Shown: piece after piece, positions 9,200-17,903 of the stretch
Numbering within the stretch: the first letter of the stretch is position 1
Layout of the letters: the number at the start of each line of letters is the position of its first letter
Virus record (IMG/VR): IMGVR_UViG_2541047747_000003
Source of the DNA: a virus
Lineage: Duplodnaviria > Heunggongvirae > Uroviricota > Caudoviricetes
Direction: 5' to 3' (one strand)
Length of the DNA stretch: 54,039 bases
Notes under the pieces: generated by a model
Told to the model about the DNA's origin: nothing
What the model saw: only the letters and a program-made list of their open reading frames with translations
Databases searched by the model: none
Position numbers and translations under genes: made by a program

Positions 9200-9504
9200 C
9201 GCATTTTCTCCTATGGTTAGAGTGAACGCGCGGGCGGGCATCCCATTAGCATTAGATAGCAGTGACTGACCGCTCAACAGATCCCGCCGTTGCGTGATAT
9301 TTGTTTTTCGCTTCGCAGCGACACCGGATTTTTAAAGAGCATAAGGTAAGTGCCTTTTTGTGCCTTCCGTTATCTTTTTCCTTGCGTCTTTGCAAGTATG
9401 GCCTTACCTTGTCTGCAAGTTTACAAAATGGAATTTTAAGATCAAGGCTTAAAATGCACGTTTTGTGACTTGCATCAAACTTTTTGAGGTTATAGGGTAG
9501 CGAC

Positions 9505-15646: not shown

Positions 15647-16186
15647 ATGAAAAATGATTACGGCGGCAGCCATACGCCGAAAGAAATAAAGGACTTATGG
15701 CAAACGCCAAAACCCGTTTTTAGAGGAATGGATCGAGAATTCGAGTTCGTCGCGGATGTGGCGGCAAACAAGGCAAACGCATTAATACCGCGATATATAA
15801 CCGAAGAAATGGACACGCTCCATTATCCGTGGGGAGCGGTGGCGATGCCTGGTGAGTATGTCTGGATGAATCCGCCATATTCTAATCCGGGGCCATTCGT
15901 TGATAAAGCGGCGCTTGAACACAGCCGAAATCATATCGGATGCGTAATGTTATTGCCCGCTGACATTTCTGTTAGCTGGTTTATGAACGGCGTGGAGACG
16001 GCAAACGAATGCCGATTAATCACGCGCGGGCGGCTGGCGTTTATCAATGCTGCAACAGGGAAACCAGTAAGCGGGAACAATAAGGGGAGCTTGTTCCTGA
16101 TCTGGCATCCACGATGCAGACATGAATGTATTTTCACGCAGATAACACGTAAAGAGCTATATGCAAGAGGTGCAGAAAATGAATAA
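15647..16186 (+). CDS. Phage DNA N6-adenine methyltransferase (Dam-type)
   Basis: 179 aa; catalytic NPPYS motif plus LLPADISVSWF and GRLAFINAATGKPVSGNNKGSLFLIW blocks typical of phage N6-A methyltransferases. Confidence 0.85.
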   Translation: MKNDYGGSHTPKEIKDLWQTPKPVFRGMDREFEFVADVAANKANALIPRYITEEMDTLHYPWGAVAMPGEYVWMNPPYSNPGPFVDKAALEHSRNHIGCVMLLPADISVSWFMNGVETANECRLITRGRLAFINAATGKPVSGNNKGSLFLIWHPRCRHECIFTQITRKELYARGAENE

Positions 16187-16499
16187 AGCGGCTGAATTGC
16201 TGAGACTTGCGGCTGAAACTATCGAGGCAAGAGGGGAGCAAAACGGATACGATCGAAAAGAAGAAAAATCAGCGCCAAAAATAGCGGCTATTTTCAACGC
16301 TAAGATGAATGCGAATTTAACCCCACTTGATGTATGGGATCTAATGATTTGCCTCAAGGAAGCGCGTTTAGGGGCTATTCTCGCTAATGGAACTGATCCG
16401 CTCGACACTCTTATAGACCTTATTGCTTATAACGCGCTTAAGGCCGAACAGATATTAGCGTATCGGGAGGAAGAGCTAAATGAAGATGGTGGCAATTGA
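16179..16499 (+). CDS. Hypothetical protein
   Basis: Start chosen at MNKAAELL. Confidence 0.45.
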   Translation: MNKAAELLRLAAETIEARGEQNGYDRKEEKSAPKIAAIFNAKMNANLTPLDVWDLMICLKEARLGAILANGTDPLDTLIDLIAYNALKAEQILAYREEELNEDGGN

Positions 16500-16983
16500 C
16501 AGGTTATTAGCCTGCGTTTATGTCGCCGTTTTCGTTATCATCAATCTTATTGTTAACCACTGTGGCCCGTGGGTAATTCCGATCACCACGGTAGCCGCCG
16601 TGTGTGTCAATATGATGATTCGTGATTTTCTGTTATATGACGGCGGCCTTAAATGGTCGGCTACAACATGCGCCGCCGCTGGCGCAATCACGGTGCTGAT
16701 AAATTACGACGCCGGAATGGTGGCGATCGCGTCATTCGTCGCGGTTGTTTCCGGTGCGCTTATTTCTGGCGGCGTTTACCGGGTTTTACCTGGTGATTTC
16801 GATTCTAAACGCTGGCCTGCAAATATAGCGTCCGCCATTGGCGATGCGTTAATTTTCCCAACGCTATCGTTTATGGCATTCATGCCGGAAATATCAGCTA
16901 TGCAATTCATCTCAAAAATGGCGGCGGTAACGGTGATCACTATCATCATGCGCCGCTACTTTACGTTCGAGGGTAGGAAATGA
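16480..16983 (+). CDS. Integral membrane protein (possible VUT/YhhQ-like transporter, uncertain)
   Basis: 167 aa with four or five hydrophobic helices; weak resemblance to the DUF165 family. Confidence 0.5.
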   Translation: MKMVAIDRLLACVYVAVFVIINLIVNHCGPWVIPITTVAAVCVNMMIRDFLLYDGGLKWSATTCAAAGAITVLINYDAGMVAIASFVAVVSGALISGGVYRVLPGDFDSKRWPANIASAIGDALIFPTLSFMAFMPEISAMQFISKMAAVTVITIIMRRYFTFEGRK

Positions 16984-17744
16984 GTGGGCTTAGAAATTGG
17001 GTGGTGTGGTCGCTGTACGACGGCAGCGGATACGCCGTTAAAGATTGGGCCGACGCTGGTTATAAATGCTATTGCTTCAACTATGATGGCGCTAATCACG
17101 GCGATTATGAAGGCGTCAAAATCATTCATCCGAACATTGAGTATATCAACGTATGGATTGACAGCCATTTCCTGGTAATGTTCTCCCCTGAATTGTCTGT
17201 TTATCCAAATCCTGACATTATCCTGGGCTTTCCTCCGTGCGACGATCTTGCGGTGTCCGGCGCTCGCTGGTTTGCTGATAAGCGGAAAAAAGAACCTTAC
17301 TTCCAGCAGAAGGCGGCATACAACGCAAAACTGGTAGAAACGCTTGCTGATATGTACCACGTCCCGTGGATGGTGGAAAATCCGGTAGGTGCGCTGTCAA
17401 CGTTATGGCGCAAACCTGATTTTATCTTCAACCCGTGCGCTTACGGTGGCTACCTGCCTGAAGACGACAAACACCCTGCTTTCCCTGAATACATAGCTGC
17501 CCGCGACGCATACACGAAGAAAACTTGTATCTGGTGCGGGAATGGATTTAAGCAGCCGCTATTCCGGCCTGTACCTATGCCGGATGAATGGGAAGACAGC
17601 AAACAGCACGCGAAGTTAGGAGGAAAGTCGAAACGCACTAAGATGATCCGCTCACTAACGCCGCGCGGCTTTGCCCGTGCTGTATTCCTGGCTAACGACC
17701 GGGCCATCACTCGTACTACGCTTAACCGCATTTTACCGGACTAA
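16980..17744 (+). CDS. DNA cytosine-5 methyltransferase-like protein (divergent motifs)
   Basis: 254 aa; motif I-like LYDGSG, motif IV-like GFPPCDD (PCQ-like), motif VI-like VENPVG; no large target-recognition domain. Confidence 0.5.
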   Translation: MSGLRNWVVWSLYDGSGYAVKDWADAGYKCYCFNYDGANHGDYEGVKIIHPNIEYINVWIDSHFLVMFSPELSVYPNPDIILGFPPCDDLAVSGARWFADKRKKEPYFQQKAAYNAKLVETLADMYHVPWMVENPVGALSTLWRKPDFIFNPCAYGGYLPEDDKHPAFPEYIAARDAYTKKTCIWCGNGFKQPLFRPVPMPDEWEDSKQHAKLGGKSKRTKMIRSLTPRGFARAVFLANDRAITRTTLNRILPD

Positions 17745-17903
17745 AGTTTACAAAATGGCATCATTGCGTGATGCGGATCACATAATGGCGCTTTTTGCCT
17801 TGTTTGGGGGTATCCATTTTGTATACTTCAAGCAAACAAAATGCTCTTTAAAAATCCGGCAGCGCTGAAATGCGTAGAAATCACCTGAAAAGGAGAGAGC
17901 ATT

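Follow-up and report, generated by a model that had tools for sequence, protein, structure and literature searches.

We analyzed a 54,039-nt stretch of viral DNA (Caudoviricetes; IMG/VR record IMGVR_UViG_2541047747_000003), referred to here as the window. Its source is a temperate coliphage of the mEp021/mEpimmI type, a gut coliphage group that is already known. Four overlapping genes on the plus strand fill the block from position 15647 to 17744 (Table 1), which is an ordinary early-gene stretch whose two stand-alone DNA methyltransferases both come from families already described. A preliminary description of this DNA had placed genes for a Dam-type enzyme, a membrane protein, and a 254-residue protein here, and the coordinates of these ORFs are real. 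It had, however, counted three genes instead of four and set the 254-residue protein two genes downstream of Dam; the distance is three genes, because a DUF6378 ORF sits between Dam and the membrane protein gene.

Table 1. Features identified in and just downstream of the early-gene block
Feature	Position	Strand	Basis
Dam-type N6-adenine DNA methyltransferase, orphan, 179 aa	15647..16186	+	PF05869, TIGR01712, phrog_111
DUF6378 protein, 112 aa	16161..16499	+	PF19905, phrog_474, phrog_9871
Short VUT/YhhQ-family (DUF165) multi-pass membrane protein, 167 aa	16480..16983	+	phrog_4899, Vut_1, hhalign
Phage "Dcm-like" minimal C5-cytosine DNA methyltransferase, 254 aa	16980..17744	+	phrog_757, predicted fold, motifs
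boxA-like TGCTCTTTAA, followed by a small A-rich hairpin	17842..17851	+	exact match; local fold z = -2.6

From 5' to 3', the overlaps between consecutive ORFs measure 26, 20, and 4 nt; in the last of them, the ATG of the 254-residue protein gene shares nucleotides with the stop codon of the membrane protein gene (ATGA). Because of these overlaps, and because no promoter-like site was found on the plus strand inside the block, the genes are probably co-transcribed as a single transcription unit. We interpret the block as a tightly packed segment of the rightward delayed-early operon in a temperate coliphage of the mEpimmI type, with the erf/ssb/abc2 recombination genes to one side of it and ninG-rusA-Q to the other. 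The boxA-like site is a probable nutR2 at the downstream end of the block; in mEp021, published work places nutR2 shortly after the methyltransferase gene, in agreement with the position of this site (PMC11893012), and the number of such boxA matches across the window is not above chance. Avoidance of CCWGG or GATC was also considered and was rejected, as both words are over-represented (131 CCWGG observed versus 59 expected and 251 GATC observed versus 181 expected, from word counts). Methyl-protected sites would account for this excess, but ordinary word usage of the E. coli type would do so just as well, and the excess is therefore not counted as evidence.

The identification of the first gene product as a Dam-type enzyme, already made in the preliminary description, was borne out by the family models and by the NPPY catalytic motif, which is read in the translation as MNPPYS. 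The protein scores 174.5 bits against PF05869 (E = 1.9e-51; cut-off, 28.1 bits) and 140.9 bits against the TIGR01712 equivalog model (cut-off, 97.05 bits), and it matches phrog_111 with an E value of 5.8e-64. As in the phage Dam family defined by PF05869/TIGR01712, which it matches over its full length, it is an orphan enzyme in the nin-like region of a temperate coliphage, and there is no notable difference from that family. Its dN/dS is 0.055 (33 unique alleles). By analogy with the family, the target is presumably GATC, where the enzyme would methylate adenine at N6.

The DUF6378 ORF exceeds the cut-off of PF19905 (E = 3.4e-9; 37.3 versus 27.1 bits) and also matches the two PHROGs families given in Table 1. 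Translation likely begins at position 16179, with an ATG preceded by AGGTG; the choice makes use of the ribosome-binding site and start position in mEp021. The window carries a short allele without the C-terminal tail of about 50 residues that is found in mEp021 and in the related phage MagusPhagus. The short allele is also present in several related loci (L013-15, L017-19, and L023), and alleles of 148 to 168 residues are found elsewhere. Because of the motif pattern of DUF6378, assignment as a MazG-like pyrophosphohydrolase was tried, and it was rejected, with nothing obtained from hhalign against the MazG-like neighbor of a transporter homolog or from a PDB profile search.

In the 254-residue protein, the three C5-methyltransferase-like motifs reported earlier are all present: LYDGSG (residues 12 to 17), GFPPCDD (residues 83 to 89), and VENPVG (residues 132 to 137). 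The protein matches phrog_757 (E = 1.5e-87) and has 2359 homologs at E values of 1e-3 or below. It gave no match to PF00145, even in a member-by-member scan at E ≤ 1, and reached no Pfam threshold; 23 of 55 homologs touch PF00145 at E ≤ 1, the best with an E value of 1.3e-6. Structure prediction, which had been proposed as a check, returned a methyltransferase fold. An AF2 model based on an 80-sequence alignment that included an actinophage clade reached a pLDDT of 89 (a single-sequence model reached only 36) and displayed a Rossmann methyltransferase fold of the AdoMet-dependent C5 type, with DNMT3A/3B as the top PDB matches. It is this predicted fold and the motifs, not the Pfam model, that place the protein in the C5-methyltransferase (PF00145) superfamily.

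The profile of the Dcm-like family aligns motifs I to IV to DNMT3B, with motif IV opposite PCN. P86-C87 in motif IV and E133-N134-P135 in motif VI do not vary within the family, and C87, E133, and K180 are invariant among 80 of its members; motif I, the AdoMet loop for which FxGxG is the typical form, is LYDGSG in the window protein and LCDLTG in the actinophage clade. The residues following PP are CT in about 95% of the family (PPCT) and CD in the window protein (PPCD). The earlier expectation of PCQ was thus too strict, given the PPCT of the family and the PCN of DNMT3B. Because PPCT is the family norm and PCN occurs in DNMT3, PCD is no sign of repurposing; the Q of motif IV is absent from DNMT3 just as it is from the window protein. 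Identity to DNMT3A/3B and M.HhaI, which belong to PF00145, is only 12 to 17%. The bacterial C5 enzymes have RxR in motif VIII, whereas the window protein has KKT at this position. The stretch between motifs VIII and IX is short and highly conserved, and for this reason we regard the protein as having no large recognition domain. In contrast to DNMT3 and the bacterial C5 enzymes, it has a short conserved region after motif VIII in place of a variable recognition domain, and it has no regulatory domains. A relationship to the small DpdA proteins encoded at the same position in other phages was rejected, as there is no similarity.

The 254-residue protein is 61% identical over 232 residues (E = 1e-102) to the Dcm protein of phage KarlJaspers (Bas06; bas06_0055), which in turn is near-identical to the Dcm protein of phage K42. 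In the K42 study, this enzyme raised 5-methylcytosine (5mC) on the msDNA of retron Ec86, as measured by LC-MS, and triggered the retron; a catalytic-site mutant did not raise 5mC, and the CCTGG site in the msDNA was required for defense. The host in that study was dcm+ MG1655, and CCWGG specificity was deduced from the motif of the host enzyme and from msDNA mutants, not mapped. The four residues that were mutated in that study with loss of activity, C82, E128, K175, and K176 of K42 Dcm, are conserved in pairwise alignment as C87, E133, K180, and K181 of the window protein. Both the K42/KarlJaspers protein (phrog_757) and the window protein are DNMT3-like minimal C5-methyltransferases, both are orphans with no restriction partner, and their sizes are similar (236 and 254 residues). 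They differ in the motif IV sequence (PPCT versus PPCD), and in about 15 extra C-terminal residues that the window protein has relative to KarlJaspers Dcm and that are modeled at low confidence. KarlJaspers Dcm also comes from a virulent phage of the Drexlerviridae, whereas the window protein comes from a temperate mEp-type phage. The protein had been described as a "minimal or repurposed enzyme"; minimal is upheld and repurposed is not, since a homolog with 61% identity yields 5mC and the mutated residues are conserved. By analogy with the K42 homolog, the window protein would introduce 5mC into phage DNA during its replication, with CCWGG, the motif proposed for that homolog, as the probable target. 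Cys87 would act as the nucleophile, and Glu133 in the ENP motif would protonate N3.

The resemblance of the 167-residue membrane protein to VUT/YhhQ-type transporters, previously judged weak and uncertain, holds. The protein matches phrog_4899 (E = 2.7e-46). In the suggested HMM search against DUF165, the protein alone fell below the cut-off of Vut_1 (PF02592) (E = 0.22; 12.3 versus 27.2 bits), although the alignment spans positions 6 to 149 of the 152 in the profile, whereas its relatives passed. Its phage homologs match it with E values of 1e-17 to 1e-30, and two of them, PEAT2 gp18 and AB3P2 CDS37, score 38 to 39 bits against Vut_1; a profile of the clade to which it belongs led to more distant relatives, which score 41 to 58 bits. 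Membership in the VUT/YhhQ family is therefore transitive, as the relatives exceed the cut-off and the window protein by itself does not. A comparison with E. coli YhhQ by hhalign gave an E value of 0.0014 over 145 columns.

The protein contains 5 or 6 hydrophobic segments, and mEp021 gp32, which is 98% identical to it, is annotated with 6 transmembrane segments. At 167 residues, it is about 55 residues shorter than E. coli YhhQ (COG1738/DUF165; 221 residues), but it is likewise multi-pass, and the N...D.V.RD...IAxAS...D...F motifs of YhhQ and of the DpdA-linked phage homologs are conserved. Residues N22, R48, D49, K110, N115, D122, Q142, and K146, which are invariant across the DpdA-linked homologs, are all kept. 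The family is small, with 259 representative clusters among 1.84 billion. Relatives of about 300 residues have C-terminal extensions that give no informative domain, and scans of IMG/VR with the Opt-719, AB3P2, P0256, and P0257 transporters found no relatives. YhhQ of E. coli is known to transport preQ0/preQ1 (Zallot 2017). By analogy, the 167-residue protein is a probable importer of a 7-deazaguanine-type base; inserted into the inner membrane, it would import preQ0, preQ1, or queuine.

Outside the mEp group, the transporter gene lies immediately adjacent to a gene for a small DpdA (phrog_887) in 14 of 14 phage records and in 10 of 10 IMG/VR loci of the PEAT2 clade; these 24 loci represent other small-phage clades, with the loci on large contigs (L077 and L080-L084) not counted. 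The partner of the PEAT2 transporter is listed as DpdA in Supplementary Data 1 of Hutinet 2019. In most other phages examined that encode the transporter family, the cargo would feed the adjacent DpdA DNA transglycosylase. Directly downstream of the transporter, most DpdA-linked loci have DpdA, and the window has the Dcm-like gene at this position. The presence of a hidden DpdA in the window was rejected on three grounds: tblastn with the small DpdAs of PEAT2, AB3P2, and Opt-719 gave a best E value of 0.13 in the window, no TGT-like or DpdA product is annotated in MagusPhagus, and none was found among ten early ORFs in a PHROGs scan. DpdA was also not found in 47 related IMG/VR loci, and neither a product of the preQ0 pathway (FolE, QueD, QueE, or QueC) nor an amidotransferase is annotated in MagusPhagus over its first 50 kb. 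The nearest outgroup of the transporter, in L077 (47% identity), is located 0.8 kb upstream of another DNA methyltransferase gene (N6/N4) with no DpdA within 4 kb. The nearest relatives in large phages have varied neighbors, including ligase, lysozyme-like, and MazG-like genes.

Judged from their sequence variation, the Dam, transporter, and Dcm-like genes are all functional, with dN/dS values of 0.04 to 0.06. For the transporter, dN/dS is 0.044 at a dS of 0.28 (38 unique alleles), corresponding to strong purifying selection. The transporter gene is intact in 46 of 47 IMG/VR loci, whereas 8 have a damaged Dcm-like gene beside it or none at all. In L016, L018, L021, L022, L047, L052-54, and L073, the transporter remains intact while the Dcm-like gene has been lost by deletion, exchanged for an ORF resembling a homing endonuclease, shortened by an internal deletion, or frameshifted. 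The two families also differ greatly in distribution. Among 50,697 phage records, 1516 contain a member of the Dcm-like family (Drexlerviridae, Dhillonvirus, and Vequintavirinae are represented), nearly all of them without the transporter, and the transporter family is present in only 21. These counts, the survival of the transporter after loss of the Dcm-like gene, and the absence of the usual partner DpdA speak against the anti-restriction or DNA-modification module proposed in the preliminary description, if it is understood as an interdependent three-gene unit. The four-gene order, transporter included, is retained in L072, a relative at 54 to 64% amino acid identity, and this conservation would also fit a functional link between neighbors. 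A tie between PCD and the transporter was considered as well. The D after the catalytic Cys is common to the window group and the L072 lineage, but it is also found in the T1-like contig L079, which has no transporter, and the T variant adjoins the transporter in the mEp-like prophage L078; the tie was rejected on the basis of these two cases. Our preferred reading, to which we assign a probability of roughly 70%, is that Dam, DUF6378, a short YhhQ/VUT importer, and a minimal Dcm-like enzyme are four accessory genes that are co-transcribed yet functionally separable.

One alternative would join two of these genes in a hypermodification module, in which the 254-residue protein has been repurposed to add a non-methyl group and the VUT-type transporter imports the precursor or cofactor. 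The 4-nt overlap of the two genes, their continued adjacency in L072 at only 54% and 64% identity, the presence of D rather than T, Q, or N after the catalytic Cys, and the gene context of the L077 outgroup would all be accommodated. We consider it very improbable, given that 5mC is produced by the homolog with 61% identity, that about 1500 phage genomes have the enzyme but not the transporter, that the transporter persists in loci that have lost, exchanged, or disrupted the enzyme gene, and that the D and T variants are distributed without regard to the transporter in the T1-like contig and the mEp-like prophage. That the membrane gene is a decaying, functionless leftover of a DpdA-YhhQ module, with DpdA swapped for a methyltransferase gene, would account for the Dcm-like gene in the slot otherwise held by DpdA and would suit a mosaic region of the phage genome. 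The low dN/dS over 38 alleles, the near-universal integrity of the transporter compared with the Dcm-like gene, and its retention in the divergent L072 lineage make decay extremely improbable.

Two further alternatives concern what the transporter does. It might feed a real 7-deazaguanine DNA modification, by way of an unrecognized phage transglycosylase encoded by one of the many uncharacterized ORFs or by way of a host-encoded Dpd system, as could be expected from the adjacency to DpdA in 24 of 24 loci of other small-phage clades, the conserved transport-type polar residues, and the strong purifying selection; viruses with 7-deazaguanines in their DNA but no recognizable DpdA have been noted and provide a precedent (Hutinet 2019). 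Against this stand the empty tblastn searches of the window with three small DpdAs and the lack of a TGT-like product in the MagusPhagus annotation and in the PHROGs-scanned early ORFs. E. coli K-12, one of the hosts of mEp-type phages, is not known to carry a dpd cluster; the ordinary NdeI patterns of mEp phage DNAs are a further, weak argument, and we hold such a modification to be quite improbable. A similarly low probability applies to co-option of the membrane protein for a role other than transport, for example superinfection exclusion or membrane perturbation in lytic growth. The missing DpdA partner, the small size and strong hydrophobicity of the protein, and the varied large-phage contexts of its nearest relatives are compatible with such a role, but all of the charged and polar intramembrane residues common to the DpdA-linked homologs and the Vut_1 profile are retained, which is the pattern that continued ligand binding or transport would produce.

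With four separable genes as the preferred reading, and because the phage is without DpdA, the likeliest beneficiary of import would be the host QueF/Tgt tRNA-queuosine pathway or an enzyme still unrecognized. What the tRNA pathway would gain from additional import is not evident, since E. coli synthesizes preQ0 itself and has a YhhQ of its own. A DpdA-independent job of the transporter under strong selection could consist of queuosine-precursor import that reprograms host tRNA queuosine in lytic growth, or of a changed cargo that serves as a precursor or cofactor for DNA modification; we regard this as unlikely. The location of the transporter between two methyltransferase genes here, and beside an N6/N4 methyltransferase gene in the nearest outgroup, fits the changed-cargo version. 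The two methylases together would leave progeny DNA fully methylated whatever the dam/dcm state or capacity of the host, and full methylation would shield the progeny when the host infected next practices methylation-sensitive restriction. In return, the Dcm-like enzyme would carry the cost that retron Ec86 (Eco1) can sense it.

In practice, little of this is new, as the mEp021 and MagusPhagus records in GenBank already have Dam and Dcm-like annotations for these genes and the Dcm-like family already has an experimentally studied member. A useful correction is that phage proteins of about 230 to 250 residues of this type would be real DNMT3-like cytosine methyltransferases and not degenerate or repurposed enzymes. 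Our results also lead to the prediction that temperate phages of the mEp type, a common group in the gut, encode an expected trigger of retron Ec86 (Eco1), and this may help explain the frequent loss of the Dcm-like gene in prophages of the group. The one unexplained part of the block is the DpdA-less YhhQ-family transporter, which is kept under strong purifying selection and poses a modest question. Knowing what it carries would reveal whether import of queuosine precursors serves phages for purposes other than DNA modification.

The block described earlier as a Dam-type gene, a membrane-protein gene, and a short C5-methyltransferase-like gene consists of four open reading frames (ORFs), as listed in the table below; the three ORFs named in the preliminary description were correctly placed, and a fourth, encoding a DUF6378 protein, had been overlooked. 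Each ORF overlaps the next (by 26, 20, and 4 nt, in that order), no promoter-like site was found on the + strand inside the block, and a single transcription unit is the simplest reading of the four ORFs. The identical four-gene order is annotated in phage mEp021 (gp30 to gp33) and in Escherichia phage MagusPhagus. The 2.1-kb region is 85 to 90% identical in nucleotide sequence, over its full length, to MagusPhagus and to the Mexican coliphages mEp010, mEp554, mEp044, mEp013, mEp021, and mEp515, and these relatives are Nus-dependent "mEpimmI" temperate siphoviruses (PMC11893012). Within the rightward early operon, the block is preceded by genes for a repressor, Erf, SSB, and Abc2 and followed by genes for NinG, RusA, and a Q-type antiterminator. 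The boxA-like site past the block agrees in position with nutR2, which in mEp021 lies just after the methyltransferase gene, and the site on the opposite strand is consistent with the published nutL of mEp021 (PMC11893012); the count of boxA-like matches across the whole window is not above chance.

Features of the block, its surroundings, and related loci
Feature	Sequence	Position	Strand	Remarks
Dam, 179 aa	window	15647-16186	+	full-length PF05869, E = 1.9e-51; NPPY present
DUF6378 protein, 112 aa	window	16161-16499	+	PF19905, 37 bits (cut-off, 27)
VUT/YhhQ-family transporter, 167 aa	window	16480-16983	+	
Dcm-like protein, 254 aa	window	16980-17744	+	
Antisense ORF, 134 aa	window	16956-17360	-	entirely within the transporter and Dcm-like genes; most likely spurious
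boxA-like TGCTCTTTAA, exact	window	17842-17851	+	about 100 nt past the last block gene; strand expected for rightward early transcription
boxA-like TGCTCTTTAA, exact	window	9332-9341	-	strand expected for leftward early transcription
HNH/AP2-type homing-endonuclease-like ORF, 175 aa	L016 and L022	3501-4028		exactly at the position of the Dcm-like gene
HNH_3/AP2 ORF	L078	5232-5708		between ninG and rusA
Dam::transporter fusion	L059	2923-3270		Dam residues 1-36 joined to transporter residues 79-167
Dcm-like, Dam-like, and DUF6378 genes	L076	717-3989		within 3.3 kb

The Dam-type assignment was confirmed by PF05869, by the NPPY motif, and by the NCBIfam equivalog model for phage N6-adenine methyltransferases (140.9 bits; cut-off, 97), and this portion of the finding is ordinary. 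The DUF6378 protein has 106 aa if counted from the likely start at 16179, lacks the C-terminal tail of about 50 aa present in mEp021 gp31 and MagusPhagus CDS0099, and occurs in this short form in several IMG/VR relatives; its dN/dS ratio (0.24) is above that of its neighbors. A possible likeness to MazG-type pyrophosphohydrolases was supported neither by hhalign comparison with a MazG-like neighbor of a transporter homolog nor by a PDB profile search.

The 254-aa protein alone matched nothing in Pfam, NCBIfam, or PDB sequences. It is a member of phrog_757, "DNA methyltransferase" (E = 1.5e-87), and has 2359 homologs in a large protein database, mostly of 225 to 250 aa, several of them labeled cytosine methyltransferase by their sources; 23 of 55 homologs touch PF00145. 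By tblastn, the family is present in 1516 of 50,697 phage records, including those of Drexlerviridae, Dhillonvirus, Vequintavirinae, Kagunavirus, phiKO2, and phages of Campylobacter, Vibrio, and Arthrobacter. Motifs I to IV of the family profile align with DNMT3B (SLFDG...PPCTDL versus SLFDG...SPCNDL). Structure prediction from the single sequence was unsuccessful, and a confident model (pLDDT, 89.4; pTM, 0.89) was obtained from an alignment of 80 sequences to which an actinophage clade had been added. The methyltransferase fold that the preliminary description wished to see checked was borne out, since the solved structures best matching this model were C5 methyltransferases throughout, with DNMT3A/3B at E values of about 1e-7 (Foldseek). 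Purifying selection acts on the gene (dN/dS, 0.057). The actinophage clade in the alignment has LCDLTG rather than LFDGSG as motif I and lacks a segment of about 16 residues corresponding to HPAFPEYIAARDA in the window protein, and the AdoMet-loop glycines are not conserved throughout the family.

A member of this family has been studied by experiment. Escapers of retron Ec86 were isolated from phage K42, a KarlJaspers (Bas06)-like member of the Drexlerviridae, and in 4 of 4 the lesions fell inside a 711-bp "dcm" gene or immediately before it; expression of K42 Dcm was toxic only when the retron was present (10.1101/2023.08.16.553469). In the same 2023 preprint, K42 Dcm increased C5-methylcytosine in msDNA as measured by LC-MS, and no such increase was seen with a C82A/E128A/K175A/K176A mutant, whose residues had been chosen by superposing an AlphaFold model on DNMT3A (10.1101/2023.08.16.553469). 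KarlJaspers bas06_0055, likewise a 711-bp gene, is annotated as a "Dcm-like C5 cytosine methyltransferase," and its product is 61% identical to the window protein over 232 residues (E = 1e-102). The four mutated residues align with C87, E133, K180, and K181 of the window protein, and C87, E133, and K180 are invariant in the 80-member alignment. On the basis of this homology and the matching residues, the 254-aa protein is therefore assigned to a minimal phage cytosine methyltransferase family that is already known and experimentally supported. The K42 experiments were done in dcm+ MG1655, and CCWGG was inferred from the host enzyme motif and msDNA mutants (10.1101/2023.08.16.553469); CCWGG is a putative target of the family and of the window protein. 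Avoidance of the presumed target sites was not seen across the whole window, where CCWGG (131 observed, 59 expected) and GATC (251 observed, 181 expected) are over-represented relative to dinucleotide-preserving shuffles.

The preliminary description suggested that the protein may be minimal or repurposed; the former holds, and the latter does not, as the K42 counterpart of the 61% identical KarlJaspers Dcm yields 5-methylcytosine. The altered motif concerns the residue after the catalytic cysteine, which is D in the window protein and N in DNMT3. Among the 229 other homologs listed with a [F/W]PPC motif, it is T in 224 and D in 5, the latter including the closest mEp-type proteins and a more distant one from L072. 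Because D also occurs in a T1-like contig without a transporter nearby (L079) and T occurs directly after the transporter gene in an mEp-like prophage (P0003, 79% identical, in L078), D is a lineage polymorphism, and its distribution led us to reject it as a sign of new chemistry or of a tie to the neighboring gene.

The membrane protein belongs to phrog_4899, a family of unknown function, and on its own matches Pfam Vut_1 only at E = 0.22, with an alignment spanning the entire profile. Its phage homologs PEAT2 gp18 and AB3P2 CDS37 (E = 1e-17 to 1e-18 to the window protein) exceed the Vut_1 cut-off (38 to 39 bits versus 27.2). A profile from the window's clade alone retrieved, by exhaustive HMMER search, 259 representative clusters among 1.84 billion; Vut_1 was matched by 9 of 10 tested representatives, 8 of them above the cut-off (38.6 to 58 bits). 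Together with an hhalign match to Escherichia coli YhhQ (E = 0.0014, 145 columns), these relatives show that the VUT/YhhQ assignment, offered earlier with doubt, was right. The window protein is shorter than YhhQ (167 versus 221 aa), which imports preQ0 and preQ1 (Zallot 2017, as cited in Hutinet 2019).

Homologs of the transporter occur in only 21 phage records, 7 of them mEp-type. In every one of the remaining 14 (Tunavirus LHE71, Lg3, Eclunavirus Phc, four Rogunavirinae, RCIP0319, two PEAT2, two Tbat1_6, ECO111 5-P, and Acinetobacter AB3P2), the gene directly adjoins one for a phrog_887 protein of 243 to 275 aa, "queuine tRNA-ribosyltransferase," and Hutinet et al. 2019 (Supplementary Data 1) list the PEAT2 copy as DpdA, the DNA transglycosylase of 7-deazaguanine modification. 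Ten more IMG/VR loci of the PEAT2 clade have the same pairing. No DpdA was found in the window by tblastn with the PEAT2, AB3P2, and Opt-719 DpdAs, in 47 related IMG/VR loci, in the MagusPhagus annotation (first 50 kb), or among early ORFs scanned with PHROGs, and no similarity was seen between the 254-aa protein and the small DpdAs of these other phages. In L077, an IMG/VR contig of 136 kb that carries the nearest outgroup (47% identity), an N6/N4 DNA methyltransferase gene follows 0.8 kb downstream of the transporter homolog, and there is no small DpdA within 4 kb. In a 35%-identical clade (L080 to L084; contigs of 117 to 140 kb) the gene follows that for an ATP-dependent DNA ligase, and in L081 it overlaps and precedes a MazG/PRA-PH-like ORF; no small DpdA adjoins the short VUT/YhhQ homologs in these six contigs. 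DpdA adjacency is not universal outside small phages. The transporter is not a relic; its dN/dS is 0.044 (dS, 0.28) over 38 alleles, and it retains every polar residue invariant in DpdA-linked homologs. This strongly conserved YhhQ-type transporter without DpdA is the sole point of residual interest.

The proposal that these neighbors form a single integrated modification module draws on the 4-nt overlap of the transporter and Dcm-like genes and on L072, which keeps the Dam-DUF6378-transporter-Dcm order at identities of 54% (transporter) and 64% (Dcm-like). However, in about 1500 phage genomes the Dcm-like family functions on its own, and the transporter is intact in 46 of 47 mEp-type IMG/VR loci, whereas the Dcm-like gene is damaged or missing in several. 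The latter is replaced by an HNH/AP2-type ORF in L016 and L022, where a remnant of its 3' end survives, deleted in L047, internally deleted in L052 to L054, and frameshifted in L018 and L021; L073 has the transporter and no Dcm-like gene. Conversely, L059 has an intact Dcm-like gene beside the Dam::transporter fusion, a natural in-frame deletion that removed DUF6378. The transporter and Dcm-like genes can be separated in nature, and the single module is not supported. The region appears to have been remodeled by homing endonucleases. In L076 (Escherichia phage PaulFeyerabend, Dhillonvirus), of a virulent lineage unrelated to the window phage, a homing endonuclease gene and a phosphatase gene lie between the Dcm-like, Dam-like, and DUF6378 genes. 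These three genes tend to share an early DNA-metabolism neighborhood.

Our results identify the short C5-methyltransferase-like protein as a genuine member of the phage Dcm family and not as a repurposed enzyme. Upon infection or induction, the early operon would supply two orphan methyltransferases, replicating phage DNA would be methylated at adenine by Dam and at cytosine C5 by the Dcm-like enzyme, and progeny would then be shielded from methylation-sensitive restriction whatever the dam/dcm status of the host. Import of a 7-deazaguanine-type base most likely remains the function of the transporter, and because the phage has no DpdA, we infer that the obvious sink would be the host QueF/Tgt queuosine pathway. 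In a host with retron Ec86, Dcm-like activity would also be a liability, and this raises the possibility that the retron, alongside ordinary prophage decay, could contribute to the frequent loss of the Dcm-like gene.
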